Shown in pieces: positions 1 to 64,000 of a DNA stretch of 64,000 nt. Source of the stretch: Escherichia phage ECCR664. The notes beneath the pieces were generated by a model, which saw only the letters and a list, made by a program, of their open reading frames with translations, did no database searches and was not told the DNA's origin. A program made the position numbers and the translations under genes. Position 1 is the stretch's first letter; each line of letters opens with the position of its first letter. Location: sequence record OL631257.1; one strand, 5' to 3'.

Positions 1-455
1 TGTAGCAATTTGAATATGTAGCTTGACTGAACGTTGTTATTATAATCAAATATTTCTTGAAGCGCACTAACTTCAACTTTCTTACTGAAATAGTAGATGT
101 TACGTACGTCTTCAGCAAACGACTCTTTAGCTTGTTTGAGACGTCCAATATATTCCCTATAGAAAACTAATGCATCAGCGTCTGATATCTCACCAATCCA
201 TGCGTCTTGGTTAGCAACTAAGTTGCTTATGAATATCAAGGTGAGTTCCTTCAATTTATATTTCTCTGATAGTTTTTCAAAGAAATATTTATCTCGGCGT
301 TTTTGATACGCATTATCTGAAACACGCATGCACCAGTTATATTTGATTACGTCATACCGACCACCAAAGTGGTTTTTGCACATCAAGTATAGTTTATATA
401 CTGATTTACCGTTAATATAACGTTCTCCATCAGGAGGCATACGTATTTTAATCAT
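1..455 (-). CDS. 59: gp59 helicase-loading protein (N-terminal ~151 aa; C-terminus beyond window start)
   Basis: Reverse translation from ATG at 453-455 gives MIKIRMPPDGERYINGKSVYKLYLMCKNHFGG..., T4 gp59-like; start overlaps gene 33 stop (ATGA); synteny 59-33-dsbA-rnh. Confidence 0.8.
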   Translation of the reverse strand, partial: MIKIRMPPDGERYINGKSVYKLYLMCKNHFGGRYDVIKYNWCMRVSDNAYQKRRDKYFFEKLSEKYKLKELTLIFISNLVANQDAWIGEISDADALVFYREYIGRLKQAKESFAEDVRNIYYFSKKVEVSALQEIFDYNNNVQSSYIFKLL

Positions 456-790
456 AATAAGAAATCTAATGTATTAGTTTTTTCACCACGAGCAACTGAT
501 GGGCGAAGCATGTTTTCGTCAATTGCTTCGCTTGTAATTTTTTCAACAATTCCTGTAGGAATAAATTTAGCAAATTGTGTTTCTGGAATAGAATTTTCTT
601 CCAAGAAAGCAGTTGTTGCTTCTAAATAAGACATACCAAATTGTTCAACCATAGATTCGATAATGAATCCGTTTTCTTGACGGTCAAGCAATTTAGCGAT
701 ATCATCTTTATCATGTTTTACTGCTAATTCTTGTTCAGATAAACCGGCCTCATCAACCGGTTTAATATCACTTAGTGAAAACTGTGTCAT
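452..790 (-). CDS. 33: gp33 late transcription accessory protein
   Basis: 112-aa ORF, same length as T4 gp33, acidic C-terminal region; position between 59 and dsbA. Confidence 0.8.
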   Translation of the reverse strand: MTQFSLSDIKPVDEAGLSEQELAVKHDKDDIAKLLDRQENGFIIESMVEQFGMSYLEATTAFLEENSIPETQFAKFIPTGIVEKITSEAIDENMLRPSVARGEKTNTLDFLL

Positions 791-1037
791 AAAGCTCGAC
801 TACCTCTTCGTTTTCAGCTTCAAATTGGTCACGAGCGTCTTTATGATAAAGAGCCAACAAACGATTAAACATTTTTCCATCGACGCCAAGCTCTTCTTTA
901 GCACGAGTACGAATGTCTTTAATCAGTTCATTATAACCAGAAATTTTAAGTTTGTTATCGGAAGCTTCCTTGACTAGTTTAGCCAGTTCTTCACCATGCA
1001 CATCTTGATTAAATTCAACTGCTTCTTTCTTAGCCAT
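768..1037 (-). CDS. dsbA: DsbA double-stranded DNA-binding protein
   Basis: ORF 768-1055; start chosen at internal Met (MAKKEAVEF...) giving 89 aa as in T4 DsbA; synteny. Confidence 0.75.
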   Translation of the reverse strand: MAKKEAVEFNQDVHGEELAKLVKEASDNKLKISGYNELIKDIRTRAKEELGVDGKMFNRLLALYHKDARDQFEAENEEVVELYDTVFTK

Positions 1038-1044
1038 GTTTACC

Positions 1045-1962
1045 TCAGAATTCATTAATTACACTTGTTAATTTAGAAAGACCAGATTTTACAAAGTATG
1101 AATAAATCTTGCCTTTAGGTTGTGGTTTATATGAATTATAATACTCTATAATGGTTGAAGCAATATTATCAGGGATATAATCAAAATCAATGAGAACCAA
1201 ATTTTCTTGGTATCGTTTATATTCTTCTGCACTTAATAGTACTTCAGCTTGAGAACGGTCATTGGCAATTGCTTCAATAATAGTTGTTTTCATGCTCGGA
1301 GTTCGTTCACCATCAACTCTGGTAAACCAGAAGTCGCCACGAACTCGAACAGATGCAACGCCATCTTTACGGTCGCCTTTAAGAATTTTAGTCATGCAAT
1401 CAATTTCAGCAGAACCGTTCTTAATTTTAACCCATTTTTTCTGTGGTGGCGACCATTGTTTAACGTTAGGATATTTGTGTAATTGTGTAAAGTCACCATC
1501 TGATGCAACAATACATACCTTATGTCCAGCTAATGACAAATATTTAGTTAATACACCGATATGGTCATCCGCTTCATACTTGTCAATATCCATTACAACG
1601 TATGGCATGTATTTCTTAATCTCATCAACAACTTTATGGAGTGCAGTAAAATATCCTTCCCAATCCCACTTTGAAGCTTCACGATCGGTTTTACGATTTT
1701 TCTTGTAATAGTAAGCAAAATCACGTCGCCAATAACCTGAAGTAGCATTATCCATACACAATACAAATTTTGTATAGCCTTGCTTACGGAACATCACTAC
1801 GTTTTTACGAATTGAATTCAAGATTACATGGCGAACCATCGGAACAGTAATTTTATCGCCGTCTTCAAAGTTGTTTAATGCGGCTGCCAACGCAATGTTA
1901 CTAAAGTCAGCAAGTGCAATACCTTCTTTGTAATCTTCATCCAACATCATTTCTAAATCCAT
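1045..1962 (-). CDS. rnh: RNase H (5'-3' exonuclease, FEN-1 family)
   Basis: Intact 305-aa ORF, same length and recognisable sequence as T4 RNase H; located immediately upstream of gene 34 as in T4. Confidence 0.9.
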   Translation of the reverse strand: MDLEMMLDEDYKEGIALADFSNIALAAALNNFEDGDKITVPMVRHVILNSIRKNVVMFRKQGYTKFVLCMDNATSGYWRRDFAYYYKKNRKTDREASKWDWEGYFTALHKVVDEIKKYMPYVVMDIDKYEADDHIGVLTKYLSLAGHKVCIVASDGDFTQLHKYPNVKQWSPPQKKWVKIKNGSAEIDCMTKILKGDRKDGVASVRVRGDFWFTRVDGERTPSMKTTIIEAIANDRSQAEVLLSAEEYKRYQENLVLIDFDYIPDNIASTIIEYYNSYKPQPKGKIYSYFVKSGLSKLTSVINEF

Positions 1963-2028
1963 ATGAACCTCTTGTTCAGTTAGTCAACTTGTCTATAGTA
2001 ACACACTCATTTGAAAGCGTAAACTGGT

Positions 2029-2036
2029 ATAAATAA
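2029..2036 (+). promoter_or_regulatory. T4-type late promoter TATAAATA upstream of gene 34
   Basis: Exact TATAAATA at 2029-2036, about 30 nt upstream of the gene 34 ATG at 2066. Confidence 0.7.
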
Positions 2037-2065
2037 GTATTATTGAAACAATAAAGGAAAAACGA

Positions 2066-5000
2066 ATGGCCGACATCAAACGTAAGTTCAGAGCCGAAGA
2101 CGGTCTGGACGCCGGTGGCGACAAGATTGTTAACGTAGCATTAGCCGACCGTACAGTAGGTACTGATGGCGTAAACGTTGACTTCCTGGTACAAGAAAAC
2201 ACCGTTCAAGTATATGATTCTACGCGTGGATATAACAAAGGATTTGTTGTTCTTTATGACAACCGTTTATATCAAGCAATAAATGATATCGTGTCTCCTT
2301 CCGGGGCATTTAACCTTTACAATGGCGTGCAGTTCGTACCGATGCACAATGGATAACTGTCGCTTCTGGGACTTATCAACTTTCTTCAGGTGAATCGATT
2401 TCGGTTAACACTGGTGCCGGCAATGATATGGTTTTCACGTTGCCAAATGCGCCGGTTGATGGTGACACTGTTGTTTTGGCTGATATTGGTGGAAGAACCG
2501 GGGCAGTTAAAGTACAGATTAACGCGTCTGTGCAGAGTATTTTAAACTTTAGAGGCGAACAAGTTCGTACAGTTTTAATGACGCGTCCGCGTTCACAACT
2601 AGTGTTTGTGTTTAGTAATCGTTTGTGGCAGATGTATATCATTGATTACGGTAAAGAATCAATCACTGTTACACCTGCTACACCATATCAAGCGCAAGCA
2701 AACGATTTTATTGTTCTTCGTTTTACTAGTGCAGCACCAATCAACATTACACTTCCACGTAATGCTAACAATGGTGATATAATCAGCCTAGTTGATTTAG
2801 ATAAATTAAACCCACTGTATCATACGATTATTAAAACATTTGATGATACAACGTCTATTGGCGAAGTCGGGACTCATATCGTCGAAGGCAGAACTTCTTC
2901 TGACGCGTTTTTGTTTTGATGCTGCAAATAATTTATGGCGTATATGGGAAGGCGACCAGAAATCACGTCTTCGTATTATCCGTACAGATTCAAATATTCG
3001 CCCAAATGAAGAAGTTCTTATTTTTGGTACAAATAACGCTACAGCAGAAACTATTAACCTTACGCTTCCTACAGGAATTTTGACCGGTGACACTGTTAAA
3101 ATTTCAATGAACTACATGCGTAAAGGCCAAACAGTAAAAATTAAAGCTGCCGAAGGTGATACAATTGCTTCTTCTGTCGCATTACTTCAGTTCCCTAAAC
3201 GTTCTGAATATCCACCTGATGCTCAATGGGTCTCTGTTACTGAACTAGAATTCAATGGCACTACTTCATATGTTCCTGTATTAGAATTAGCGTATATCGA
3301 AGACACCGATTCTGACACTCATTATTGGGTTGTGCAACAGAATGTCCCTACGGTAGAACGTGTTGATGCTGGAACTGATGCTACACGAGCTCGTTTAGGT
3401 GTTATTGCTCTTGCTACTCAAGCGCAAGCAAATGTTGATTTAGAGAATACTCCAGCTAAAGAAGTGGCTATTACTCCTGAAACGTTGGCAAATCGTACAG
3501 CAACTGAAGCTCGACGTGGTATCGCTAAAATTGCTACAACAGCACAAGTTAACCAGAATTCCACAGCAGCATTTGTGGACGATACTATTGTTACGCCTAA
3601 AAATTAAATGAGCGTACAGCAACTGAAACTCGTCGTGGTCTTGCTGAAATTGCTACTCAGGTTGAAACCGATGCTGGTCTTGATGACACAACGATTATTA
3701 CACCTAAGAAATTACAGGCACGTCAGGGTTCTGAAACACTGTCTGGTATAGTTAAATATGTATCAACTACTTCTGCTACTCCTGCTGAAACTCGTGGGGC
3801 TGCAGGCACTAACGTTTATAATAAAACCGTAAATAATTTAACTATTTCTCCTAAAGCCCTTGACCAATATAAAGCAACTTATGCTCAACAAGGTGCAGTA
3901 ATTTTAGCTGTTGATAGTGAAGTAATTGCTGGTCAATCACAAGCAGGTTATTCTCACGCTGTAGTAACTCCTGAAACACTACATAAGAAAACTTCTACTG
4001 ATGGACGTATTGGTTTAATTGAAATTGCTACGCAAGCAGAAACTAATGCTGGGACTGATTATACACGTGCAGTAACGCCTAAGACGTTAAATGATAGGAA
4101 AGCTACGGAAGGATTATCCGGCATAGCCGAACTTGCTACGCAAGTTGAATTTGATACTGGAACTGATGATACTCGTATCTCGACTCCACTGAAAATTAAA
4201 ACTCATTTTGATTCTTCTGACCGTACCAGTGTTAATTCTGATTCCGGACTTATTGAAGAAGGAACCTTGTGGAACCATTATACTCTTGATATTTCTAAAG
4301 CAAATGAAACACAACGTGGTACACTTCGCGTAGCGACTCAGGCAGAATCTAATGCAGGAACTTTAGATGATGTTCTTATTACTCCTAAAAGCTTTTAGGG
4401 ACTAAGTCCACTGAAACGTCTGAAGGTGTAATTAAGGTTGCTACTCGGGCTGAAACTGTAACAGGAACTTCTGCTAATACTGCTGTATCGCCTAAGAATT
4501 TAAAATGGATTGTCCAGAATGAACCAACATGGGCTGCTACTACGGCAATTCGTGGATTCGTTAAAACTTCATCCGGTTCTATTACATTCGTTGGTAATGA
4601 TACAGTTGGTTCAACACAGAACTTAGAGCTATACGAGAAAAATAGCTATGCAGTATCACCGTATGAATTAAACCGTGTATTAACAAATTACTTGCCATTA
4701 AAAGCAAAAGCTGCTGACTCAAATTTATTAGATGGCCTAGATTCATCCCAGTTCATTCGTAGGGACATTGCACAGACGGTTAATGGTTCACTAACCTTAA
4801 CCCAACAAACGAATCTGAGTGCCCCTCTTGTATCATCTAGTACTGCTACGTTTGGTGGGTCAGTTTCGGCAAATAGTACATTAACTATTTCTAATACTGG
4901 AACGGCAACTCGTCTGATTTTTGAGAAAGGACCTCAAACTGGAACTAATCCAGTGCAGACGATGACTATCAGAGTTTGGGGAAATCAGTTTGGTGGCGGA

Positions 5001-5935
5001 TCAGATACAACACGTTCTACTGTATTTGAAGTTGGTGATGAAACGTCTAATCATTTTTATTCTCAACGTAATAAAGATGGGAATATAGCGTTTAGCATTA
5101 ATGGTACTGTGATGCCAATAAATGTTAACGCTTCGGGTTCATTGAATGCGAATGGCGTAGCAACATTTGGTAGTTCAGTTACTGCTAATGGCGAATTCAT
5201 CAGCAAGTCTGCAAATGCTTTCAGAGCAATAAACGGTGATTACGGATTCTTTATTCGTAATGATGCTGCTAATACCTATTTTATGCTCACTGCATCCGGT
5301 GATCAGACTGGCGGATTTAATGGATTACGTCCTTTGGCTATTAATAATGCATCTGGTCAAGTAACGATTGGTGAAAGCTTAATCATTGCCAAAGGTGCTA
5401 CTATAAATTCAGGTGGTTTAACTGTTAACTCGAGAATTCGTTCTCAGGGTTCTAAAACTGCTGATTTATACACTCGTGCTCCTACTGCTGATACAGTCGG
5501 GTTCTGGTCAGTTGACATTAACGATTCAGCCACTTATAACCAATTCCCGGGTTATTTTAAAATGGTTGAAAAAACTAATGAAGTGTCTGGACTTCCGTAC
5601 TTAGAACGTGGTGAAGAAGTTAAATCCCTGGTACTTTGACTCAGTTTGGTAATACGCTTGATTCTCTTTACCAAGATTGGATTACTTATCCAACGACACC
5701 GGAAGCGCGTACCACTCGCTGGACTCGCACATGGCAGAAAACTAAAAATTCTTGGTCAAGTTTTGTTCAGGTATTTGATGGTGGAAACCCTCCCCAACCT
5801 TCTGATATTGGTGCTTTACCTTCTGATAATGCAACAATTGGAAACTTGACGATAAGGGATTTCTTAAGGATTGGTAACGTCCGCATTATTCCAGACCCTG
5901 TGAATAAATCTGTTAAATTCGAGTGGATTGAATAA
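2066..5935 (+). CDS. 34: gp34 long tail fibre proximal subunit (interrupted by several frameshifts/stops)
   Basis: ORF fragments 2066-2356, 2428-2919, 2840-3607, 4692-5639, 5636-5935 all translate to gp34-like sequence; total span 3870 nt = 1289 codons as in T4; repeated motif TPKKL..RTATE..RRG..IAT visible after frame repair. Confidence 0.85.
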
Positions 5936-5943: not shown

Positions 5944-7069
5944 ATGGAAAAATTTATGGCTAAGTTTGGACAAGGATACGTCCAAACGCCGTTTTTATCG
6001 GAAAGCAATTCAGTACGATTTAAATTAAGCATAGCGGGCTCTTGCCCGCTATCAACATCTCCTGCTTATATTAAGTTCCAGGATAATCCACTTGGGTCTC
6101 AGGTTTTTCCGTTGGATTAAACGTTCGTGTAATAAACCCTACAACAGGTACAGTAGTTGAATCTAAGACATATAATTTCTCTACTGAAAACGACACCACG
6201 TCAAGTGCATTTGTTACTTTCATGGACACATATGCTTCAAATTTTATATTTGCTCTTGTTACTAACGCTAAAACAAACTTTCCACCTGAAGTTCTTGCAT
6301 GGTTTAATAAAGCCGGAAGTTCTGTTATTCCATTAGCTCAACAAGTTTTAAATATAGTGGACATTTCTTATTCGGCATTTTATATTTCTGGTAAGAATGC
6401 TATAGCACTAGAACATATTAAGTATAGTAATAAGAAGACTTCAACCGACTATAGTACACCACTTGATGTTGTGTATGACACGATAGATGATATCGGTGCT
6501 ACGGGCTTCCCTAGTCGTACGTATGAATCGTCAGACACATTTTTATCTGCCGTTGGAGGTACTAATAATGAAATTAAAGGATGCCTACAACATCTCTTAT
6601 TACACCTCTCGCCGGGTATAAATTGAAGCCTGGAGATTTCCTTTATATGAAATTCCAACTAATGGCCGATGTCGATTTGTTAGCACAAGGGACGACACGA
6701 CTTTCTATTCGTTTCTTTAAATCTCCTTCTACTTCACCTATTTCATTTAAGGATACAAACTTTGATGGGGCTGCAGGTGAATGGAAGATATATGAAGACT
6801 ATATAGAAATTCCTGCTGGTGCTGACGGGTTCACGATTTATTGTTATCGTACAGCTCCAGTCGGGCAAGGTGGATTAAGAAACGTTATATTCACTGAAGT
6901 ATCATGTAATGGAAGCGTTTCAAAACCTGCCGAGTTTGGTGTAAATGGTATTCGTGTAAATTATGTTTCAGAATCTTTAAGTGCCCCAGACATAATGACA
7001 TTACCTACTCAATCTTCAACTGATACTGGTAAGGTGTTTGGGCAAGAATTTAAAGAAGCATCAGAATAA
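5944..7069 (+). CDS. 35: gp35 long tail fibre hinge protein (frameshifted)
   Basis: Starts MEKFMAKFGQGYVQTPFLSESNSVRFKLSIAGSCPLS; fragments 6222-6626 and 6581-7069 continue gp35-like sequence; ~374 codons. Confidence 0.8.
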
Positions 7070-7131: not shown

Positions 7132-7796
7132 ATGGCCGATTTAAAAGCTGGTAGTACAACTGGCGGTGCTGTCATATGGCATCAAGGTAATTTCCCTTTA
7201 ATGCCAGCAGGTGATGACGTCCTGTATAAAACGTTTAAACTCTATTCAGAATATAATAAGCCACAAGCTGCTGATAACGATTTCGTTTCTAAAGCTAATG
7301 GTGGTACGTATGCCGCTCGAGTAACATTTAATAATGGTGTGCAAGTACCTTATGCTATAAACAATACAAACCCATGTGGTGTTTATCCAGGTAACGGTGA
7401 TAATGCTACTTTTGCTGTAGCAAATATTGACATCGTTTCGTGGAATGGTATTGGTTTTAAATCATCGCAAGGTTCAGCAGGCCGAACTGTTGTAATTAAT
7501 GCACGTAATGGTGATATTAGCACAAAGGCGTTGTATCTGCTTCAGGACAAGTAAGAAGCGATATGACTGCTCCGGTTGCAGCAAATGATCTCACAAGAAA
7601 AGATTATGTTGATGGACGAATAAATATTGTTACGGATAACGCAAATTCCCGTGTATTGCGTAAAGGCGATACCATGACTGGTACTTTAACAGCACCAAAC
7701 TTTTTCTCACAGAATCCGGCGTCTGAGGCTAATCATGTTCCTCGTTTCGACCAGATTGTAATTAAAGATTCTGTTCAAGATTTCGGCTATTATTAA
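7132..7796 (+). CDS. 36: gp36 long tail fibre distal connector (one frameshift near 7550)
   Basis: [23 protein letters not shown]... and C-terminal ...[19 protein letters not shown]4 gp36-like; ~221 codons. Confidence 0.8.
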
Positions 7797-7804: not shown

Positions 7805-10800
7805 ATGGCTACATTAAAACAGATACAATTTAAAAGAAGCAAAGTAGCAGGAGTTAATCCTACTGCAGCACAATTAGCCGAAGGCGAATTAGCGATAAAC
7901 TTAAAAGATCGAACTCTTTTACTAAAGACGACCTCGGTAATATTATTAGCCTAGGCTTTGCTAAGGGCGGGGATATTAACGGTAATGTAACTCAAAATGG
8001 AGATTATTTACAGAACGGTACATATAATCTCAATGGAAATCAGTTTGTTTATGCAGGAAAATATATTGAATTTTTACCTAAAACTGCAGGCAATGGTGCT
8101 TGGGCAAATCAACATCTAAATAAAGCTCCTATCTTTACAGATTTGAGTTCAACTACTTCTGTTTCAGAATATCATCCACTGATTAAACAACGCTATAAAG
8201 ATGGAACTTTTTCTGTTGGTACGTTAGTAAACGAAGGAAGTTTTAAAATTCATTTTATGAATGAATCTGGTGATTCGAAATATTGGACGTTTCGCCGTGA
8301 CGGTGGATTTACTGTTGATGGTGGAGGTTTAGCAGTATCAGGAGGTAGTATAACTACATCTGGAAATATTGCAGCTCTCGGAAATATTACTTCGCCTCAG
8401 ATTAATACTAAAAATATTATTTTAGACACAAAAGCATTTGGACAATACGATTCGCAATCATTAGTTCAATATGTTTATCCTGGAACAGGCGAAGAAAATG
8501 GTGTAAACTATCTTCGTAAAGTTCGCGCTAAATCAGGCGGAACTATTTACCATGAAATCGCTTCAGCTCAAACTGGTAAGAATGATGAAATTTCTTGGTG
8601 GACCGGAAATACACTTACTACTAAATTAATGGGTCTTCGTAATGATGGCGCAATGGTATTACGTCGTTCACTTGCTATTGGCACAATTACTGCTGACGAA
8701 AATACTAACAACTATGGCTCTCCTACTCCAATGGGAGAAAGATATATTGCTTTGGGCGATGCTGCAACTGGTTTAAAATATATTAAGCAAGGCGTTTATG
8801 ATTTAGTAGGTAATTGGAATTCTGTTGCTTCTATTACTCCTGATAGTTTCCGTAGTACTCGTAAAGCATTATTTGGACGCTCAGAAGACCAAGGCGGAAC
8901 CTGGACAATGCCTGGAACCAACGCCGCGCTTTTATCGGTTCAAACCCAGGCTGATACAAACAATGCAGGTGATGGTCAAACCCACATTGGATATAATTCT
9001 GGCGGTAAATTTTCCCATTATTTCCGTGGTACAGGTCAGATGAATATCAATACCCAACAAGGTATGGAAATTAACCCGGGTATTTTGAAATTGGTAACCG
9101 GTGCAAATAATGTGATGTTTTATGCTGATGGCGGTATTACATCCACTAAGCAGCTTTCAATATATAATGGTGTATATTTAGCAGCTAATAATTCTACTGC
9201 CGGGCTAACATTCGCTCCAACTACTACAGTTGATGGCACTAAGCAAATTTTGTGGGAAGGTGGTACTCGTGCTGGGCAGAATAAAAGCTACGTAACTGTT
9301 AAAGCATGGGGTAATTCATTTAACGCATCCGGCGATCGTACTCGTGAAACAGTTTTTGAAGTAGCTGACGGGCAGGGATATTATTTTTATTCTCAGCGCA
9401 TAGCTCCAACCGGTTCAGAAACTGTGGGACCTGTTGTAACCCAGTTCAATGGACAAGTTAATGCTAGAGGAGCATTATCACCGATGGAAGTCTTAGAGTT
9501 AATGGATTAAGTGCATTATCCGGACAAGTTACTATGGATAACGGGCTTGTTTTATCCGGTGGTGGTTCTATTACCGGTCAAGTTAAAATCGGTAATACCG
9601 CAGATGCTTTCCGTATTTACAATGCTGAATATGGAGCTATTTTCCGTCGTTCTGAAGCGTCTTTGCATATTATACCTACACTTAAAGATGCAGGTGAAAG
9701 TGGTGGTATTTCTAACCTTCGCCCATTGAGTGTTTCTCTTAACAACGGTATGGTTCAAATGCGCCATTCTGTTACGTTAGGTGATGATGGTGCTGGCGGT
9801 AATATGGTGACCGTTGATAATGATAATAAACTTGTTGTTATAACTAGTCATAGTCGCATTTCTCCTAATTACCGTATGCAATTAGGACAATCGGCATATA
9901 TCGACGCTGAATGTACTGATACTGCACGACCTGCTGGAGCCGGTTCTTTTGCTTCACAAAATAATGAAAACGTTCGTGCTCCGTTCTATATGAATATTGA
10001 TAGAACAGATACAAGCACTTATGTTCCTATTGTGAAACAAAGATACGTTCAAAATAATAGTTGCTATTCTATTGGTACTTTAATTAATGGTGGTAACTTT
10101 AGAGTTCATTATCACGAAGGTGGTGACGGCGTTTCTACTGGTGCTGTTATAAAGGATCTTGGATGGGAATTTAATAAAAACGGTGATTTTTATTCTCCTG
10201 GTAAATTAGGCGCTGGTAATGTTCGTATTGGTACTGATGGTAATATCACTGGTGGTTCTGGTAATTTTGCTAACTTGAATACCACAATAAATAACCTTAA
10301 GACGGATATTGTCTCGAGTTACCCAATTGGTGCTCCGATTCCTTGGCCTACTGATACACCTCCTGAAGGCTATGCCATAATGGAAGGTCAAACATTTGAT
10401 GCTGGCTTGTATCCTAAGTTAGCTGCAGTGTATCCTTCCGGCACTCTGCCTGATATGCGTGGTCAAACTATCAAGGGTAAACCATCTGGGCGTGCTGTAT
10501 TAAGTACAGAAGCAGACGGTGTTAAGTCACATAGCCATAGTGCAAGTGCATCAAGCACGGATTTGGGTACTAAGACCACATCAAGCTTTGACTATGGTAC
10601 TAAGACGACAAGTAGTTTCGACTATGGTACTAAGACCAGTAATAATACTGGTGCTCATACGCATAGTTTGAGCGGTTCCACAAACACCGCCGGTGCGCAC
10701 AGCCACACAAGCGCTCTTTATGCGGGAAGTAACAACGCTCCTGGTATTGGTTCTATAAGAGGATCCGCCGGTGGTGGTAATACGCTTGGAACTTCTTCTT

Positions 10801-11021
10801 CTGGGGCACATTCGCACTCTATATCTGGTACTGCTGCAAGCGCAGGCGCTCACGCACATACTGTGGGTATTGGTGCTCATACGCATACTGTGGGTATTGG
10901 TGCTCATTCTCATACTGTTGCAATTGGTTCCCATGGACATACAATAACTGTAAATGCCACAGGAAATACAGAAAACACAGTTAAAAACGTTGCTTTTAAC
11001 TATATCGTTCGTTTAGCATAA
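7805..11021 (+). CDS. 37: gp37 long tail fibre distal subunit / receptor-binding tip (frameshifted)
   Basis: Starts [42 protein letters not shown]; C-terminal His-box array ([48 protein letters not shown]) and ending [11 protein letters not shown] as in T4-type gp37. Confidence 0.85.
10566..10640 (+). repeat. About 2.5 tandem copies of a 30-bp repeat inside gene 37 (encodes [10 protein letters not shown] repeats)
   Basis: ggtactaagaccacatcaagctttgactat / ggtactaagacgacaagtagtttcgactat / ggtactaagaccagt... read directly. Confidence 0.8.
10848..10928 (+). repeat. Three tandem 27-bp repeats inside gene 37 encoding His-box units (GAHxHTVxIG)
   Basis: gctcacgcacatactgtgggtattggt / gctcatacgcatactgtgggtattggt / gctcattctcatactgttgcaattggt. 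Confidence 0.8.
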
Positions 11022-11050: not shown

Positions 11051-11586
11051 ATGAAACTCTATCACTATTATTTTGACACTAAAGAATTTTACAAAGAAGA
11101 AAATTATAAACCATTAAAAGGCGTAGGATTTCCGGCTCATTCAACACCAAAAACCTTTAGACCCTAAAGAAGGCTATGCTGTTATATTTGACGAACGCGA
11201 GCAAGAATGGGTATATGTTGAAGATCATCGTGGAAAAACAGTATGGACTTATGATAAGCAAAAATTGTTATTGACACTCCAGGTGCTCTTCAAAATGTTA
11301 CTACAGAAGAACCTGGTGAATTTGACATTTGGACCGACGACGGGTGGAAGGAAGATGAAGCATATAAACGCGTAGTTCAACGTGATAAGAAAATTCATGA
11401 ACTCTATAAATTATTCAGTGTTTTAAGTTCTCTTATTGACGCAGAGGTTGCTAATAGAGAAGAAAAACGAAAATTTAAAGAGCTCAAAAATTCTTTGCCC
11501 TTTTAGAAAAACACGAACATCTTGGCGGTGAATTCCTAAATTCCTGACCTTGAAAACAAATCTATTGTCAAAGCGATTATAAATAT
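11051..11586 (+). CDS. 38: gp38, T4-type tail fibre assembly chaperone (multiple frameshifts; no fragment >=60 aa)
   Basis: Translation starts MKLYHYYFDTKEFYKEENYKPLKGVGFPAHST, T4 gp38-like; later fragments ...EPGEFDIWTDDGWKEDEAYKRVVQRDKKIHELYK... in shifted frames. Confidence 0.6.
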
Positions 11587-11595
11587 CTTTAAGTA

Positions 11596-13030: not shown

Positions 13031-13313
13031 AGTCTTTACCCTTATGTTTTTGTTTGCGTTTAGATTGAAGTTCTGATTTCTTCTTGTCCTTATGAACAGA
13101 AGCCTTATTGAAATCGTGTTTTGCTACAAGATTGTTCATAATGATTTATAACCTCATTTAAACATTTATCGGTAAAGAAAACTTTTAGCCACAGAACATT
13201 CGATAATGTGCTCTTTCAAATCTTTAGAGTTGGTATATCCCATCTCAGTAATAAAGTGGCGAATTAAAGCTTTATTCTTATCATTAACAGAATTAAAATA
13301 ATCTACTTTAGAA

Positions 13314-15357: not shown

Positions 15358-15391
15358 TTTATTTCTCCAATTTGGTTGTTTTGTTTTTGAT

Positions 15392-49104: not shown

Positions 49105-49130
49105 AATAAAGTGGCCGCCAGGATGATAAC

Positions 49131-50756: not shown

Positions 50757-53466
50757 TCAAAAATCGAACATATCGAACAGAGATGCTTTCTTCTCGTAAT
50801 CGAGTTTCGCTGCTGATGTGAATCCTTCAAGTGGTTTAATAAATGTCTTCTCAAGGAGAACCGTGTAGTCCATCCAATGAAGTACGTCGTCTTTAATTAA
50901 ATCTGTGATTTCAGTACCAGAAGGCCATGCGATACATTTATCACCGAATGGGTTTCCTTCACGTAAAGGCAGAACATATACTTTTTCACCTTCTACAACT
51001 TGTGGTGCATCAATATTACCTTTAATAGCCCGGTTATACGTCAGAATTCCACGAATATGGAACGGGCATTTGGGACCAGGGAATCCACCAACGTCATATT
51101 TAGCAATGTTATTCGCAGAAGATACCGACGCAATGCTAATATAATTCAATTGACGGAATTCTTTTTCAAACTCTTTAAAATATTCTTGTAATGATTCTTC
51201 ACCTTCTTGAAGCATACGACGAATACATTCTTTAAGAGCTTTCTGTACCGCTTTAGGAGTTGAAGATTTCTGTGTTTCGAGACCCATGATTTTGAGTTTA
51301 GGCTCAGCGTAACGAGTACCTTCCATATCCCACACGTTTAATGCATAACGTTTCTTACCAGTCCAGAATCCGCCAATACCTTTAGAACCGAGCGGAGGAC
51401 CAGCGATAGCTTCTCGGTCCATGAACATCAAATGTTGCTTATTATTCATGTATTCGCACATTTCACGGAAACCTCTATCAATAGCTGGTTCCATACGTTC
51501 ACGTGCAAACTTATCTAAGAAGTCTACCCAATGGTTGGTATCACGGAATTTAGATTCACCAACCTTATCAATAATTTTATCAGCAGATACGTAAATAGAG
51601 TCTGTATCACCATAAAGAACGAAAGCTTCACCTTCTGTACCACAAACTTCATTCAGATATTCATTAACTTTACGTTCAATCCACTGTAAAGCCATTTGAC
51701 CAAATGTTGTGATTGCAGTAGCATTACGCAAATCGTAATAACGGAACCAAACGTTGCCAAGTGCACCATAAAGTGAGTTGATAAGCAATTTACGGTTAAT
51801 TTGTGCAGTCATACCTGCAACTTCAGTACGTTGAGCTCTAAACAACATTTCATTAAGAGATTTAGCAGACAACTTTTTAATCTTTTCTTTAATCTCATCA
51901 GTGAAGTCGAAACGATAATCAACATCTAATGGTTCGTCAACAGAAAGATTAGGATTATGCAATGCCTCTTTAATTATTTCACCATTACGTTGAGCTGCAA
52001 GCATGTAACCTTTATGTTCTTTACGTTGATTAAAGACCTTAGTGATTTCAGTTGGAACTACACCGTCACGGTCTTTATAATACATCATGCCGTTAGGAGA
52101 GCAACTGTACACATCAGAAGGACGTTCAGCAACAGCGTTAATATAATCATGCAGTGGAGCTACTTTAAACGTTCCTGCTATTGTTTCTGGGCTAATATTC
52201 ACTTGGCGAATAATACTTGGATACAGAGATGTAAGGTCGAAACTCATTACATATTTGTATCGATTTGGAATAGGTTCCTTAACAAAAGCGCCAGGATAAG
52301 GTTGAACCGGGTGAGAACGACCTTGTGGAATCACCTTGTTTTGTTCTTTAAGGCTATTAAAAATAATAGCATCCCATGTTTTAATTGGGCTAAACACAGA
52401 TTGAATCTGTATCTTAGCATAATAACCCATGTCCAAACTCAAGTTGATGAACTGACGCTTAGCATCAATTTGCAATACACGATACACGTCGATAATGTTA
52501 TAAGAAATATATCGTTGGTGATTGCTTTCACGAAGCTTAGAAATAGGACCGTCATATTTCAGTTTACCGACATTCAATTCAAATTCTGAAATGTAATCCA
52601 GAGAATACGACGGTTGATTGGTAAAGAGAATTTTTGTAAAGGTCAATGTAATCAAGAACAGAGATACCGAACAATGTAATGATTTCACGAGAACCATACA
52701 TGTTTTCGATAACTTTAACACGAGTTTTACGATGTGGTGATAAACGTTTCGCAGTAGATTCGCCAAAAATATTTTTGATTCGGTTATACACATATGGAAT
52801 ATCAAATGACTCAACGTTCCATCCAGTCAAAATGACAGGAGTTTTCTGTTGCCAGAAGTTGAGATATTCCATCAACAATTCTTTTTCGTTATCGAACGGC
52901 ATATAAATGATTTTATCAATAATTTCGGATGGAACTTCATCACCACCTTGTTCTTGAAGCTTAGCTGCAATTTCGATAGACCATTCTTCTACATTACCAT
53001 ATGGAGAATTCAATAGATCAAATACGTAGAACCTGTCGTCAATTGAGTCATAATGGGTGATAGCATCAATCGGATGTTTTGCTTGTGACGGCTCAGGAAA
53101 CCCATCCGGAGATGTTACTTCGATGTCGAAGTTAGCCACACGAATTTTTGTATGGACGTATTTGATTTCATAGTTATAAGTGTCAGACAAATACGCTAAT
53201 TTGAAATCGTCCATGCCAAGTGCTTCAAGTCCGATATCTTCCATGCGTTTAATCCATTGGGAGGCATCACGCATATTAGCGAACAACTTACGAGTACATG
53301 GCTTACCGTAGATATCGAAATATTTCGTAGCCTGACTTTCCGGACAATGAGCAAACAGTGATGGTTTATATTCTACTTCACGAGTACGTTCACGGCCATT
53401 AGAATCGATGTAACGTTCAAAAATTGAATCACCAATCTGTTCAACCGTTAAGTAAAATTCTTTCAT
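50757..53466 (-). CDS. 43: gp43 DNA polymerase (family B; one frameshift near 52600)
   Basis: N-terminal exonuclease fragment 52579-53466 (MKEFYLTVEQIGDSIFERYIDSNG...FDIEV...) and polymerase fragment 50757-52814 (...SLYPSII..., ...YGDTDS..., ends ...KKASLFDMFDF); ~903 codons. Confidence 0.9.
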
Positions 53467-53916: not shown

Positions 53917-54480
53917 TTTTACCATTCCAATGCTAATTTTTAAATTGTTTTTGTTCTTTTACGTTTTTAGTAACTTCTTTGAGAAACTCATCAGTGACCA
54001 TGGCCTTCAGTTCTTTAAGGACTATTGGCAACTTGTTATTTTTTCAAGGAGCCGCTTATACTCGGTAGCATCATTCATGTTGATTGTGTAATGTTTCATC
54101 AACAGTTTGATAACTAGTAACTCTGAAGTGTCTTCGACTAGTTTAGCCCATTTAGAGAATCGACGACCACGCGGAATTGCCGCCATCATATAGTTGAAGT
54201 GCGCTTCATCACTTAATTCAGAACCGACTAAGTTCATCATGTAAACGGCTGGCATACATTCTGGGAACTGGGATAGTGAGTTCTCAACCATAAATTTTGA
54301 GTAGTCGACCTGAGCAATTGACATAGATTTCTTTTCATTAATAGCATTAATGATTTTAAAGAATTCATTCTCAGGTTTTTCTTTAAACATATCAGCACAT
54401 TTTTGAATCGCATCAGCGTCATTAGACTTCCATGCAATTTGGTGCTCGTTAAGCTGGACGTCATCATCGAATAAGTTCAT
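53917..54480 (-). CDS. 62: gp62 clamp-loader small subunit (one frameshift near 54030; 3' end approximate)
   Basis: [35 protein letters not shown]...[30 protein letters not shown]..., T4 gp62-like. Confidence 0.75.
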
Positions 54481-56248: not shown

Positions 56249-56670
56249 TTATGCAGCAACCATCTGCTTTTTAATAGCTTCAGGCAGTGATTCAATATAT
56301 TCTGGAATTTTAGAAGCAACAATTTCGCCAGCTGCAATTAATTGTTCGTCGGCATCAACACAGTATAAATCTTCCAGACGCTCAGAACCATCTTTATCAA
56401 GAACGATTTTTCCACCTGCTTCAATAGAATCTTTATAGTGCTTACGCATCAGATGAATCCACATATCAGATACATCGTTATCAATAAAACCATAAATCAT
56501 AAAACGAGTTTCTTGTGGCAAAGATTGAAGCTTTTAGCACTTGCGTCATCACAATGCAGGACCCATGCTTTACGAACACGATTATGGTTATGCGGGTTAG
56601 CGTCAGTACGGATAGAAGTAACTTTCAGATCAGCAGCAGTGAAACCTTTAGCAGTAGTAAACATATTATT
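56249..56670 (-). CDS. rpbA: RpbA-like RNA polymerase-binding protein (positional; one frameshift)
   Basis: MFTTAKGFTAADLKVTSIRTDANPHNHNRVRKAWVLHCDDASAKS... then ORF 56249-56521; lies between 46 and 45 as rpbA does in T4. Confidence 0.45.
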
Positions 56671-56683
56671 TCTCTCTTATTCG

Positions 56684-56864
56684 TAGAAGTCAGTAACTGT
56701 CCATGCGGAATTGCGATTAGACATTATTTTATTATACTCATCTTTAAAAGCAGATTTGAGCATTTGTTCAGTAACAATATGTTCTTCACCTGAAAACGTA
56801 TTGGTCAAAACATATTTTTAATTTCAGGGACAACAAGAAGATGTTGTCCGGTTGAATACTCCAT
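56684..56864 (-). CDS. Hypothetical small protein (~60 aa, one frameshift; 45.2 position)
   Basis: RBS GGAG then MEYSTGQHLLVVPEIKNMF...; second frame ...EEHIVTEQMLKSAFKDEYNKIMSNRNSAWTVTDFYE. Confidence 0.3.
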
Positions 56865-56914: not shown

Positions 56915-58603
56915 GCGTTTATGAAACAGTCATCACAGTAAATCGTCCAACTTTACTCATCTGAAGATGTTGTCCATAACGTTGAGGGTCATGGTCTCGA
57001 TGAGAGATAATAAACACATTAGTATTTTGTAAACTTCCAAGAATGGTATCTATAGCCTTAACAGCCTCAGAATCGACAGCCCCATCAAAACCTCATCAAG
57101 AATCAACGTGTTGATTTTAACACCAGAAACTTTTTCAGCAATATCTCGCCATGTAAACAACAATGCGATATCGATACGTGCCTTTTCACCTTGACTAAAT
57201 GAAGCATAACTAAAATCTTCACGACCACGTGATTTTATAGATTCATTGAATTCTTCGTCAATAGAAAACACATAATCAGCTTCCATGATTTTAAGGTAAT
57301 GGTTAATCTGCTTGTTGAACAGAGGCACATATTTTTAATGATAGCACCTTTAATACCAGAATCTTTTAACATATCTGTTATAATACCACGATGGTATTTT
57401 TCAAGAACGATATCCGATTTTGTTTTAATGATTTTATCAAGTTCTTTTGAAGCAAAGCTATCTCATCGGCATGGTCGATAAATTCCGCCGAGGCTTGTTC
57501 TATTGCAGCTTTAACTTTCTTAGCTTTATCAATAGTGGCAATCATTGCTTGTTTCTTGGTACGAATATCAGATGCAAGGTCCTGTTTAGTCTTAACATTA
57601 GCTCTATATTCGTCCACTAGGACACTCAGATTATCTCTGTGACAGGTAAGTTGCTCGAATGAGTGATTACATTCATGAAGCTTATCGGTAATCTTAGAGA
57701 CAATAGGATCACCCTGGTGCAACTGTGATGCACAAGTAGGACATGTGCCACCGTCATGATACATCTTAATAACTTTGTTATATGAGTCAATTTTAGATTT
57801 AATCAAGAATGCTTCTTGACCGATCTTGTTGAATGCCTCAGTAGGGTCTTCGTCAAGAACGATATTAAGTAGACGCTCGTTAGCTTCTTCAATTTCTGCT
57901 TTTAATGAACGAGCTTCTTTGGCTAGGTCGTCATACATATTCTGTAGACGCGCTACATTATCGCCAGATAATTTCTTTTGACGTTCGATATTCTCGTTAT
58001 AAATCTTAATTTGTTGGATAATACCATCTTTCTTGGCATCGAGAACTTGTCCCTGGGAATTAAGTTCTCGAACTTGAGACTTATTGATTTTATCCATTTC
58101 AGCGAGTGTTCCAACTTCTAATAAGTCTTCAACAAGCTTTCTGCGAGCAGGGGTGCTAAGAGCCATGAAAGGGGTATACCCTGCCGTCCCAAGCACAACG
58201 ATCTGTTTAAAAGACGCGTATGACATTCCGATGCTACGTTCAAATTCTTCTTGGAAGTCACGACTGCTGGCAGATTCATCAAGACGAACACCGTCAACGG
58301 AGATTTCGAAAATATTGGGCTTTTGGCCACGTTTAATGAAGTATTTTTATCATCGAATTCCATCCAAAGCTCAACTAAGAGCTCTTTCTTGTTCGTGCTA
58401 TTAATGATTTGTCCTTTCTTAACATCACGAAATGGTTTACCGAAAAGTCCGAAAGTAATGGCTTCTAACATCGTAGATTTACCACCGCCATTTTTACCAG
58501 TGATTAATGTCTTTTGGACTTTATCTAATTGGATATCGATAGGATTCCCACCTACCGACATGATATTTTGATAACGAACACGATTTAATTTAAATGATTT
58601 CAT
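56915..58603 (-). CDS. 46: gp46 recombination endonuclease subunit (Rad50/SbcC-like; frameshifted)
   Basis: N-terminal MKSFKLNRVRYQNIMSVGGNPIDIQLDKVQKTLITGKNGGGKSTMLEAITFGLFGKPFRDVKKGQ (Walker A); coiled-coil and CPTC zinc hook in 57378-58226; C-terminal ...ILDEV... and ...VFIISHRDHD. Confidence 0.85.
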
Positions 58604-60380: not shown

Positions 60381-60602
60381 TCATCGTTTCCACCATTTCT
60401 TAACTTGAAATGAATCAACCCACACGAGTTGTTTTGGGTCTGCCTTTACAATAGGCGGACAAATTTCTGTAATAGAACCGTCGTGATATTCCTTTTCAGA
60501 AATTTTAACACAAAGAGGACCTCCCAATTTAAGGGTGAACCCTGCGTTCAGATTCAGACGTTTAAACTTTGTTTGAACTAGCGCCATTAATAATGTCCTC
60601 AA
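60381..60602 (-). CDS. Hypothetical protein (73 aa)
   Basis: Intact ORF in the interval where T4 carries alpha-gt. Confidence 0.35.
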   Translation of the reverse strand: MRTLLMALVQTKFKRLNLNAGFTLKLGGPLCVKISEKEYHDGSITEICPPIVKADPKQLVWVDSFQVKKWWKR

Positions 60603-60679
60603 TAGCCTGACGAGTAGTAACCCACTGGATTTTAATTAACTTGTCATTATATGGTTGTCGTAGAATATCCCGAGATTTC

Positions 60680-60883
60680 TTAATAGCATATTCGTAAGCT
60701 TCGAAGTTGTTTTGAATTGCTGCTTCTTGAGCATGAGCATAAAGTCGATTTAGTTCGAAACGATTCTTTTAAGAATCTTTTCAGATTTTTACGTGCTTCA
60801 GCTTCATTTTTCTTTTGTATTTCTTGTAGCATTTTAGCTACTGCATCTTCTGCTTCTTTATTTTCAATAATCTCGGTAGTCAT
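60680..60883 (-). CDS. Hypothetical protein (67 aa)
   Basis: Intact ORF. Confidence 0.3.
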   Translation of the reverse strand: MTTEIIENKEAEDAVAKMLQEIQKKNEAEARKNLKRFLKESFRTKSTLCSCSRSSNSKQLRSLRICY

Positions 60884-60884: not shown

Positions 60885-61100
60885 TTATCTCATTAAATTA
60901 AAATAAAAACGTCCGTCCTCTTCAATACAGAACTCGTACTCAACTGGAGTCCCATTTATTGAAAATGACACGTCATGTGGGTTCAAAGGGTCGATGTCAA
61001 AATTAATTTTAAATTCTCGACCCAACAGTTTTACCAAATAAGGGATTGCTTCGTCAAAAGGTTCTTCTAAGTAGTTAGAGATGTCAATTGTCATCCTCAT
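60885..61100 (-). CDS. Hypothetical protein (~70 aa; overlaps the frame-shifted 3' end of gene 55)
   Basis: ORF 60885-61235 begins with gp55-derived sequence then continues as an unrelated peptide; boundary uncertain. Confidence 0.25.
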
Positions 61101-61639
61101 ATAAAAATCCAAACTAGGTGAATCGCTAACAACTTCCTTCTTTTCAGCCCCAGGAGCTTTATAAGCGGATTCTTCATAATGCGTCATTTTATCGTAGATG
61201 TCTTGAATAAACGTTTCATCTACCAACGCTACCATATCATCGTCATGACTGTCGTAGACGTTATGAACGAAGTAACTATATTTCTTTGCAACTTCCTTAC
61301 GTTCTTTTTGATACGTTGGACAAAAGCATTAAAACAAGCTCGAGTTATGTATGCATGTGGGTTATTGTACTTAGTTTCGTCGAAATTATGAAGTCCCTTA
61401 ATAGAGGCTTCAATCCCATCTGCAATCATCTCCTGCTTCCAAGACTGGGTATATCCTGAAAAGTTGAAACGTTTGGACAGGCCTTCGGCGATAAGCATAA
61501 TTGCTAAACCGATGGTATCATTCTGACGAATAATTTTGTTTGGGTCTTTATTATTTAAGAGCTCCTTTTTCCACTCGATTATAGCAGCGAGAAGCTCTTT
61601 ATTATTCACATAGTTATTTTTAGGTTTTTGTTCAGTCAT
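61082..61639 (-). CDS. 55: gp55 late-promoter sigma factor (one frameshift; 3' end approximate)
   Basis: [91 protein letters not shown]..., T4 gp55-like; C-terminal part ...[22 protein letters not shown]... in a second frame. Confidence 0.8.
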
Positions 61640-61975
61640 AAGTACCTCTTAGCTCAATTCATAGGTCTATTATATCATAATATTTAGAGACCTATCTTAA
61701 AGCACGAGATACTATCGGAGCAAACAATACGCCTGGAATACTTTTTCCATTAAACGTTTGAACTCATGGATATCGATATAAAGCTCAGTAAGACCGGCAT
61801 TATAAAGAAAATCTAAAAGTTCTCATGTGTTTCGTTATAGTCGCCTTCGTTTAATTGAGATACATGAGTTTCCCAAAACCGACACCTTTAACGAATGGAA
61901 AATACGTAACTTTCATAAAGTTGTCGACGTAAAATTCGCCCAGCTTTTCTTCAGTTATACTGATTCGAGTTAATT

Positions 61976-62203
61976 TCATTCTAGTTCCTTTGCCGCTTCA
62001 AGAGCAGCATCCAGCGAATCAAATTGGTCAACGAAATCAATATTCAACGCATCGTCATCCGTAGCATATAACCACCATTGTTTGAATTCGTATTCTAGAA
62101 TAAATCCAAGCCCTTCAATCTGAGAAAGACCTAGACTATTTGTACCAACTTCGTAACCAGCTAGACGCAGGTCATTAATCAAAGCTTCTGTTAATACGCT
62201 CAT
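61976..62203 (-). CDS. Hypothetical acidic protein (75 aa)
   Basis: Intact ORF. Confidence 0.35.
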   Translation of the reverse strand: MSVLTEALINDLRLAGYEVGTNSLGLSQIEGLGFILEYEFKQWWLYATDDDALNIDFVDQFDSLDAALEAAKELE

Positions 62204-62222
62204 TTTACCGCCTTAACAATTT

Positions 62223-62531
62223 TCAGGTCAACGAATTTTTCTTACGTTGATTTTTCATACGACGGATAGTCTTTTCAGAGATTTCATGTTTCTGATAAGC
62301 TTTAGATTCAACACCAAATGCAGCAACGTCAAATTCAGAAAGAATATATTGTACTAGAATTTCACGAATAGAATTACGTCCAATTTTCTGGTCGTGTTTT
62401 TGCATGATTTCATAAAGATGGAATTCCCAGGCGTCAAGAACTTGAGGAGTAACAATATTGCCAGATTCCAGAAGAGCAACAACTTTATCGAAAGCGAAAG
62501 AATTAACTACGTTTTTGATTTTAGTAGACAT
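62223..62531 (-). CDS. Hypothetical protein (~102 aa)
   Basis: ORF 62223-62579; start set at MSTKIKNV with RBS GAGGAAAATAAT, because the longer ORF would run through the promoter element at 62571-62596. Confidence 0.35.
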   Translation of the reverse strand: MSTKIKNVVNSFAFDKVVALLESGNIVTPQVLDAWEFHLYEIMQKHDQKIGRNSIREILVQYILSEFDVAAFGVESKAYQKHEISEKTIRRMKNQRKKNSLT

Positions 62532-63182
62532 ATTATTTTCCTCGGTTATTTTATTATCCAACGAGAGAATTATACTCATCTCTCAAGAGTTTGTATATTA
62601 TTTTTAAGCATGAAAAGTAAGTAATTTGTATCACGTGGAGTAATATCAACACCCATATCAAAGATGCCTTTATAGATTGGGTATTTGTTTTCGGTTGTAT
62701 CGAAGCTGAAACTATTTCCATCACAACTAACAGTAATAGCATCTGTTAAAATGTCATACTCAATCCTAACGGTTGAATCGCCAATTTTAACGTCGAGGTG
62801 TTTTTGAATTTGATAAAATCTAATTCTTGGGCCATGATATTTTCCTCATTTTAAGACGATAGGAAGATAATAACATGTCTTCCTATCGTTGTACATTATT
62901 AACCGAACTTTTAGCGCCTTTCCAGCCTTCGTACATAGCTGCACAAGTCAGTAGTACAGCGTGCTGGCATTCTTTGTATTTGTAAATCCAGAACCAGCGT
63001 AAAAGTCTTCGTCCTCAACGCCGTTGAGTTTCATGTTGGCAAAGAATTTGGCACGTTCTTCACGAAGTTGCCATGACACAATATTTTCAGGATTCATTTT
63101 GTGTTCCACGCCCCATTTTCATCGATGAACTTAATCCAGTCATTTACGGACCATTTAGTTGTATCGCCCTTTGGATTAACAT

Positions 63183-63554
63183 TTAAAGTATATAATCCCT
63201 GCTTAAAAGCATTCGTTTAATATTCATAATTTCCTCAACTGTAACGATAACATTCGTTAGCTTTACGTTTGGCTTCAGTATGAGAAGTATTATAATCATA
63301 CTCTTCTTTACTGTAAACATCTTTTTCAACTTACGAACTTCTTTGCGGAGTTGTCGATTCATTTCGTTCTTGACTTCAGAATCAACACCTTTCATACGTT
63401 TCCATTTATCTGAGCGGAAGATGTTTTCAACCATGTCTTTGTGGCTAACACCATCAGGAGCTTTACGCTTACCAAAATAGTCGTAATCGCGAACTTTCAA
63501 ATCTTTACGACGATATGTTTTACCCATAAGTACCTCAGAGGTTGATTGATACAA
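63183..63554 (-). CDS. Hypothetical basic protein (123 aa)
   Basis: Intact ORF. Confidence 0.3.
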   Translation of the reverse strand: MYQSTSEVLMGKTYRRKDLKVRDYDYFGKRKAPDGVSHKDMVENIFRSDKWKRMKGVDSEVKNEMNRQLRKEVRKLKKMFTVKKSMIIILLILKPNVKLTNVIVTVEEIMNIKRMLLSRDYIL

Positions 63555-63783
63555 TGCGTTTGATAAAATTCACTTCACTTACTGAAAGGTCTTTAAGACC
63601 GATTGATTCTAAACGCTGAGTAAGCGTCAACATCGGGATATAGTCCCAATGAGTTTTATTTGCTTGATAAGTACGAACGCCATTAGCAATTTCAACATGC
63701 AAATCTGAAATGGTAACGAATACCAGACGCTCATCATTAACTTTAAGGGTTAGAACAACTTTCTTTGAATCTAAACTAATCAT
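63535..63783 (-). CDS. Hypothetical protein (82 aa)
   Basis: Intact ORF with overlapping stop/start. Confidence 0.35.
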   Translation of the reverse strand: MISLDSKKVVLTLKVNDERLVFVTISDLHVEIANGVRTYQANKTHWDYIPMLTLTQRLESIGLKDLSVSEVNFIKRIVSINL

Positions 63784-63962
63784 AGTTTAATTTCCTTCGC
63801 GATTGAACAGAAGATACCACGGTCACAAAGCATTTCACCAATTTCTGGATATTTGATTGAACGATACCAAACATCTAGGCTTGAAACTCTGGTTATCCGT
63901 ACTGCATTACCGTTGACAGAATAGTACTGGTCGATATTAATTTCTTTATCTTCAATTGTCAT
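63780..63962 (-). CDS. Hypothetical protein (60 aa)
   Basis: Intact ORF, ATGA overlap with the downstream gene. Confidence 0.3.
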   Translation of the reverse strand: MTIEDKEINIDQYYSVNGNAVRITRVSSLDVWYRSIKYPEIGEMLCDRGIFCSIAKEIKL

Positions 63963-64000
63963 TTTATTTTCCTCTATAGCAGTTTGTTTAATCTTAACAC

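Follow-up and report, generated by a model that had tools for sequence, protein, structure and literature searches.

Systematic homopolymer under-calling as the very probable cause of broken genes in a 64-kb sequence of the RB69-like Escherichia phage ECCR664

We analyzed a stretch of 64,000 nucleotides (nt) from Escherichia phage ECCR664 (sequence record OL631257.1; this whole stretch is referred to as the window), in which many conserved phage genes, among them those for tail fibres, DNA polymerase and helicases, are broken by frameshifts. A comparison with related genomes indicates that these gene breaks almost certainly reflect systematic homopolymer under-calling in the sequence of an ordinary, functional Mosigvirus. 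The underlying deletions are private to the window, nearly one-directional, dependent on run length, blind to coding status and reversible by refilling the missing bases. Homopolymer errors had already been put forward as the cause in a preliminary description of this DNA, and the private one-way deletions, their run-length dependence, their indifference to coding status, the normal pattern of substitutions and the restoration of 98 of 104 coding sequences (CDS) upon refilling all bear that proposal out.

A megablast search of the window, carried out in three blocks against INPHARED, showed that it is collinear with many intact Escherichia and Shigella Mosigvirus phages. The best identities were 95-97.5% over 93-100% of each query block, with matches including ATK47/ATK48, p000y, mar005P1 and G53, and for none of the three blocks did INPHARED contain a record above 97.5% identity. 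A 52-nt pattern across the gp34 A5 site had no exact match in IMG/VR, JGI metagenome contigs or GTDB genome contigs, and exact-protein look-ups matched neither the N-terminal gp43 fragment nor intact rIIA. The records of these relatives are classified as Mosigvirus, and the window shares with them both the identity and the collinear gene order by which membership of the genus is judged. At the genus level, the window appears from its sequence to be a segment of an ordinary Mosigvirus coliphage (Straboviridae, Tevenvirinae; RB69-like). Five intact Mosigvirus genomes were used as references: Enterobacteria phage ATK48 (KT184310), Escherichia phage p000y (MK047718), vB_EQ1 (PQ516281), PNJ-6 (OQ076693) and vB_EcoM_G53 (MK327943). 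The window was aligned with the first three in a 4-way alignment, and PNJ-6 and G53 were added in a 6-way alignment.

To measure the extent of gene breakage, 104 complete vB_EQ1 CDS were mapped onto the window through the 4-way alignment, which was built with MAFFT. Insertions or deletions (indels) that are not multiples of three relative to vB_EQ1 were found in 52 of the 104 CDS, and 50 contain indels strictly private to the window with respect to the three references; nine further sites are intergenic. The preliminary description, which counted at least 20 conserved genes split into two to six fragments, had thus understated the damage, as about half of all complete CDS (50-52 of 104) are broken. 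All 20 genes that it named do carry frameshifting indels relative to their intact orthologues, with one to five shifts each: five in gp34; four each in gp38, gp52 and gp46; three each in t and gp39; two each in gp35, gp37, gp41, gp40, uvsX, gp62 and gp55; and one each in gp36, asiA, motA, dexA, dda, gp43 and rpbA. A mechanical listing of open reading frames (ORFs) in the window already shows the large genes in pieces. With about half of the CDS frameshifted and two to six fragments per gene, the warning that gene calling by ORF length is unreliable here is well founded.

Gene 34 provides two worked examples. At 3599-3603 the window has A5 where all relatives have A6, exactly as first described, and restoring one A gives PKKLNERTATETRRGLAEIATQ. 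The second break, placed earlier in an A5 run near 4388, is also real; the run itself, however, is A4 at 4387-4390 in the window and A5 in the relatives. Total gene lengths had first been compared with those of T4; the relatives of the window, however, are RB69-like Mosigvirus genomes and not T4 itself. Gene lengths remain close to those of the relatives because each gene has lost just 1-6 nt. The supposition that the breaks are compensating indels did not survive the 6-way alignment, in which 92 of the 93 short indels private to the window are deletions and only one is an insertion.

The 4-way alignment revealed 110 indels private to the window, among them 88 1-nt deletions, six 2-nt deletions and three 1-nt insertions, compared with 0-3 private 1-nt deletions in each of the three references. 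The 6-way alignment leaves 86 1-nt deletions, six 2-nt deletions and one 1-nt insertion private to the window, and each reference has only 0-2 private 1-nt deletions over the same region. The resulting ratio of deletions to insertions is 92:1 (p ~1e-22 for the sign bias). The sole private 1-nt insertion in the 6-way alignment, T4->T5 at 15384, lies in a small hypothetical ORF, and its sign is opposite to that of the ~92 others. In four of the six 2-nt events, two neighbouring runs lost one base each, as in gp43, where A3T6 became A2T5. Altogether about 100 bases are missing in 64 kb, or ~1.6/kb, which corresponds to ~Q28. Pairwise BLAST comparisons gave 2.1 gap openings per kb between the window and a reference versus 0.6-0.9/kb between references, with similar mismatch densities (35-36/kb for window against reference and 34-39/kb between references). 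None of the frameshift sites is shared with any of the five Mosigvirus references in the 6-way alignment. As a side observation, vB_EQ1 has 23-25 private indels, more than ATK48 or p000y (9-12).

The preliminary description had proposed aligning the window to close relatives and tabulating indels against homopolymers. When this was done, almost all breaks proved to be private single-base deletions whose frequency rises steeply with the length of A/T runs. Shortening rates were calculated on runs that are identical in all three references. Among A/T runs, 0 of 1861 were shortened in the window at length 3 (0% at three or fewer), 3 of 519 (0.6%) at length 4, 32 of 163 (19.6%) at length 5, 32 of 42 (76%) at length 6 and 2 of 2 at length 7. 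G/C runs were shortened in 3 of 282 cases at length 3 and 1 of 25 at length 4. The window retains 11 A/T runs of length 6 and none longer, compared with 49-54 such runs plus 4-5 longer ones in the relatives. An A/T run of at least four adjoins 82 of the 94 deletion sites in the window, compared with 8.9% of random positions (p ~1e-72). A difference between A runs and T runs, which would indicate strand or base asymmetry, was tested and was not significant.

Several tests were used to separate artefact from biology. Shortening was similarly frequent in both compartments, affecting 19.5% of coding and 22% of non-coding runs of length 5, and 74% and 100%, respectively, of runs of length 6 (Fisher p = 1). 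Equal rates in coding and non-coding DNA imply that selection has not seen the deletions. Which genes are hit is predicted from run content alone, with 64.0 shortened runs expected and 63 observed. Genes that escaped are those with few long runs: in long intact genes such as rIIA, rIIB, gp44 and gp47, A/T6 runs are absent and the number of A/T5 runs does not exceed two, the count found in rIIA. The genes that are hit include the essential gp43, gp41, gp62 and gp55. Moreover, substitution-free stretches of 400-630 bp relative to a reference still hold one to three single-base deletions.

The substitutions tell the same story of intact reading frames. Among those private to the window, 86% are synonymous, 86% fall at third codon positions and none creates a nonsense codon; the three intact references, at 85% synonymous, are indistinguishable from it. 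Downstream of the first frameshift in the broken genes, 213 synonymous and 26 non-synonymous substitutions were counted in the reference frame (89% synonymous). Such an excess of synonymous changes beyond the frameshifts implies that purifying selection still acts on the reference frames and that the lineage gathered its ~3.5% divergence while translating the unshifted frame. An excess of substitution errors, for example from glucosyl-hydroxymethylcytosine disturbing base-calling, was also considered and rejected, as the count, spectrum and synonymous fraction of window-private substitutions match those of the reference genomes.

In a repair test, refilling just the 94 private deletions left 98 of the 104 CDS intact, compared with 52 before. 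The refilled ORF spectrum equals that of the references (1302, 903, 740, 609, 576, 574, 483, 445 and 445 amino acids (aa)). The six CDS that were not repaired have individual causes. The arn gene and the start region of the peptidase failed because of alignment placement, and hyp182 because its region is missing in one reference, so that its deletion was not scored as private. A single 1-nt insertion accounts for hyp183, a stop-codon substitution scored as natural (TGA->TGG) for the ORF at 40289-40605, and hypervariability for gp37.

Two points weigh against homopolymer under-calling as the explanation. The case for error is drawn from comparative evidence only, and 12 of the 94 sites have no adjoining run of four or more in the window, for example GGG->GG in gp39 and modA and CC->C in gp52. 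These 12 sites fit a pure long-homopolymer model less well; deletions in short runs and adjacent runs are also known error modes. In addition, several seemingly non-homopolymer sites do fit the run pattern, since one relative has a run there or a window-private substitution would create one. At site 63002, which appears to be non-homopolymeric in the window, p000y has A5.

If under-calling is the cause, base-calling or consensus building would usually have reported A/T runs of five or more one base short, and sometimes two, with short G/C runs and adjacent A/T runs struck occasionally. Each lost base would shift the frame, and mechanical ORF calling would then split about half of the genes. 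Comparable damage is well documented. Homopolymer indels in nanopore consensus sequences lead to frameshifts and fragmented gene calls unless they are polished, and they can be corrected from short reads or homologous genomes (PMC9262707; PMC8011154). In phage genomes assembled solely from long reads, DNA polymerase was doubly frameshifted and tail-fibre genes were interrupted (PMC10438801), and a guide to phage annotation puts errors of sequencing or assembly first among the kinds of frameshift that have to be excluded (PMC8785237). Oxford Nanopore R9-type consensus sequences resemble the window in having indels concentrated in homopolymers, frameshifts and split ORFs. R9.4 drafts polished with Racon alone reach Q23-Q33 with a predominance of deletions (PMC8011154); the window, at ~1.6/kb (~Q28), falls inside this range, and deletions predominate in both. 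Compared with R9-type consensus, the 92:1 ratio of deletions to insertions and the onset at run length 5 make the window a severe case and suggest that the base-caller was old or that polishing was omitted. The profile most resembles that of a nanopore assembly (R9-era or earlier) that was left unpolished or built from long reads alone; 454, Ion Torrent and low-coverage PacBio continuous long reads (CLR) are less likely platforms.

The origin of the error could also lie in software: homopolymers may have been partly compressed, polishing may have been too aggressive and have introduced false deletions, or errors typical of long reads may have been simulated on purpose. The polishers Racon, MarginPolish and HELEN can indeed raise deletion errors (PMC8011154), and so clean a profile, with almost no insertions and no excess of substitutions, could come from polishing or simulation. 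The graded dependence on run length (0.6%, 20%, 76% and 100%), however, looks signal-level rather than like rule-based compression, and the occasional double deletions in adjacent runs likewise look like signal-level under-calling. A software origin is judged very unlikely. Whether it arose in base-calling or in software, the feature is an artefact. It is even less plausible that the deletions are genuine and that the phage is defective or heavily pseudogenised, whether as a decaying remnant, as non-viable particles, or through a frameshift mutator or acridine-type mutagenesis. The breaks are undeniably there in the sequence as given, and replication slippage, too, strikes homopolymers preferentially and becomes more frequent as runs get longer. 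Natural slippage, however, gives both signs and could not saturate runs without other damage, whereas in the window 76-100% of A/T runs of six or more are struck at a 92:1 ratio of deletions to insertions, substitution-free stretches bear one to three deletions, larger lesions are absent and gene order is collinear. Such a phage would have half of its CDS broken, including those for the polymerase, helicases, clamp loader, late sigma factor and tail fibres, and yet it shows no relaxed selection (89% synonymous changes past the frameshifts, no nonsense changes and a normal substitution rate).

A further possibility is that the frameshifts are real and are rescued by transcriptional slippage or programmed ribosomal frameshifting at A/T runs. 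The shift sites are A/T runs, the type of sequence on which RNA polymerase slips, and in endosymbionts such slippage at long poly(A) tracts restores the function of frameshifted genes. Efficient RNA polymerase slippage, however, needs about 8-9 nt or more, whereas the runs at these sites are just 4-5 nt long in the window and the longest A/T run anywhere in it is 6. At each of about 85 independent -1 sites, spread over 50 genes, a +1 correction would have to occur efficiently, no site is common to any of the five relatives, all of which have simple in-frame genes, and non-coding runs are shortened at an equal rate, with nine intergenic runs affected besides the 50 genes. Programmed frameshift sites are generally conserved among relatives. 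Those of the lambda G/GT tail chaperone and T7 gene 10A/10B resemble the window in that a gene is split over two frames at a short repetitive site; they differ in occupying one site in a specific gene (PMC8785237), whereas the window has ~85 sites in 50 genes and none is conserved. Single sites in the lambda tail-assembly genes and the T7 capsid gene are also the only programmed frameshifts named in the phage annotation guide (PMC8785237). The chance that recoding explains the breaks is negligible. More broadly, it is extremely improbable that the ~94 deletions are truly in the phage DNA, be it as a non-viable hypermutated population or as a phage expressing half of its genes via slippage recoding at short A/T runs.

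The individual sites along the window are collected in Table 1. According to the annotations of ATK48, p000y and vB_EQ1, the window starts in gp59, followed by gp33, dsbA and rnh, and continues with gp34-35-36-37-38-t on the + strand. The - strand contains asiA, motA, gp52, ndd, denB, rIIB, rIIA, gp39, dexA, dda, srd, modA/B, soc, gp56, gp61, imm, gp41, gp40, uvsX, gp42, gp43, regA, gp62, gp44, gp45, rpbA, gp46, gp47, gp55 and small gp55.x ORFs. This order is fully collinear with the Mosigvirus references, without gene loss, large deletions or rearrangements. Intact Mosigvirus genomes resemble the window in the order gp59 -> gp34-38, rII, gp39, dda, gp41, uvsX, gp43, gp46/47, gp55, and their mutual substitution divergence equals the divergence of the window from them; in contrast to them, the window is one base short in most A/T runs of six or more and in one fifth of A/T5 runs, and it differs from them, in the usual mosaic manner, at the gp37 tip and in small accessory ORFs. 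Scans of the whole window with Rfam (gathering thresholds) and for tRNAs returned nothing.

Table 1. Indel sites in and between genes of the window. Sites are written as position(-n), meaning that n bases have been lost directly after the given window position; spans are window coordinates.
Gene or region	Span	Strand	Sites
gp34 long tail fibre proximal subunit (6 fragments)	2066..5935	+	2315(-1), 2912(-2), 3598(-1), 4386(-1), 5626(-1)
gp35	5944..7069	+	6103(-1, T6->T5), 6575(-1)
gp36	7132..7796	+	7523(-1)
gp37 distal tail fibre	7805..11021	+	7916-7920(-1, T5->T4), ~9470(-1, GGG->GG vs p000y)
gp38/tail fibre assembly	11051..11596	+	11148(-2, A7->A5), 11259(-1), 11485(-1), 11537(-2)
t holin	11606..12262	+	11723(-1), 11815(-1), 12187(-1)
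asiA	12263..12533	-	12404(-2, T6->T4)
arn-like anti-restriction gene	13114..13327	-	13181(-2; adjacent A and T runs each one shorter)
motA	14408..15039	-	14796(-1, T5->T4)
Two small hypothetical ORFs (EQ1 CDS0182/0183)	15143..15474	-	T5->T4 near 15195; T4->T5 insertion at 15384
gp52 topoisomerase II medium subunit	15544..16865	-	15594, 16320, 16534, 16839 (each -1)
ac	17010..17155	-	17032(-1)
ndd.1-like hypothetical	17731..17930	-	17754(-1, A5->A4)
rIIA.1	22516..22714	-	22638(-1, A6->A5), 22682(-1); intergenic site 22507
gp39 topoisomerase II large subunit	23950..25764	-	24083(-1, GGG->GG), 25086(-1), 25661(-1)
Two small ORFs (EQ1 CDS0199, FmdB-like)	25827..26453	-	25946(-1), 26297(-1); intergenic site 25810
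motB-like	27735..28153	-	27759(-1)
dexA	29283..29959	-	29670(-1, A5->A4); intergenic site 29243
dda helicase	29969..31281	-	31081(-1, T5->T4)
Hypothetical and srd	31278..32335	-	hypothetical 31499; srd 31951, 32090 (each -1); intergenic 32362, 32415, 32435
modA	32486..33093	-	32627(-1, GGG->GG)
Hypothetical, mrh, hypothetical	33788..35014	-	33904; mrh 34191, 34250; 34936 (each -1); intergenic 35275
Small hypothetical ORF	36200..36396	+	36241(-1)
Hypothetical and imm	38141..39396	-	hypothetical 38253(-1, T6->T5); imm 39291(-1)
Two hypothetical ORFs	40289..41034	-	40566(-1, A6->A5), 41011(-1); intergenic 41116
gp41 replicative helicase	41122..42496	-	42261(-1), 42459(-1)
gp40	42572..42911	-	42586(-1), 42851(-1, C4->C3)
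uvsX	42904..44074	-	43407(-1), 43901(-1)
Hypothetical and U32-like peptidase	46382..47773	-	hypothetical 46535; peptidase 46786, 47520, 47605; 47773 in T run just upstream of start codon
561-aa hypothetical	48215..49900	-	48307, 49188, 49892 (each -1)
Arabinose-5-phosphate isomerase-like	50082..50716	-	50279(-1)
gp43 DNA polymerase (2 fragments)	50757..53466	-	52630(-2; A3T6 -> A2T5)
gp62 clamp loader	53919..54480	-	53936(-1, T6->T5), 54038(-1, T7->T6)
rpbA and adjacent hypothetical	56249..56864	-	rpbA 56531(-1); hypothetical 56814(-1)
gp46 recombination nuclease subunit	56919..58603	-	57086, 57333, 57444, 58343 (each -1)
Hypothetical	60562..60883	-	60766, 60787 (each -1); intergenic 60145
gp55 late sigma factor	61084..61639	-	61102(-1, A6->A5), 61304(-1, T6->T5)
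Six small gp55.x-region ORFs	61712..63527	-	61814, 61874, 62235, 62600, 62800, 62908, 63002, 63204, 63321 (each -1)

Natural variation was also observed beside the artefact. The distal part of gp37, its receptor-binding end (window 9567-10850), is naturally hypervariable, with ~81-83% identity to ATK48 and vB_EQ1, and ~150 nt of it (10700-10850) align to none of the three references. It is closer to p000y and ST0, at 96-97% identity over ~90%. Mosaicism of this kind is usual at the tail-fibre tip and is distinct from the homopolymer artefact. Small accessory ORFs (window 39887-40099 and 15114-15349) vary in presence or absence among relatives: the 70-aa ORF at 39887-40099 is found in the window, vB_EQ1, PNJ-6 and G53 and is absent from ATK48 and p000y, and the region of a 71-aa ORF (~15143-15357) is absent from p000y.

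Relative to vB_EQ1, the window has in-frame length differences of +15 nt in a small arn-region ORF (14053-14397), +12 nt in rIIB (19334-20281) and +33 nt in a motB-like ORF (28163-28723). Because all three are multiples of three, they look like natural variation and not errors. In the gene for a 105-aa hypothetical protein (40289-40605, - strand), the stop codon is replaced by TGG (Trp), which makes the product a few codons longer, with a stop at 40280; this change at 40280-40292 is either natural or one of the rare errors of substitution type. Among the references, srd of PNJ-6 (OQ076693.1, 32257-33004) is annotated as two overlapping CDS in a record labelled 'partial genome', which suggests a frameshift and possibly a sequence error in this public reference as well.

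ORF-based annotation, protein clustering, and claims of truncated or novel genes made from the sequence as given would be wrong, as ~50 genes would be mis-called as two to six fragments, yielding spurious small "hypothetical proteins". Other findings in the window that rest on reading frames, gene lengths or homopolymer tracts are to be discounted, and the sequence needs polishing, with short reads or by a homology-based method such as Homopolish, before use. For the biology of this phage, the gene breaks hold no novelty; they are an artefact of sequence quality.

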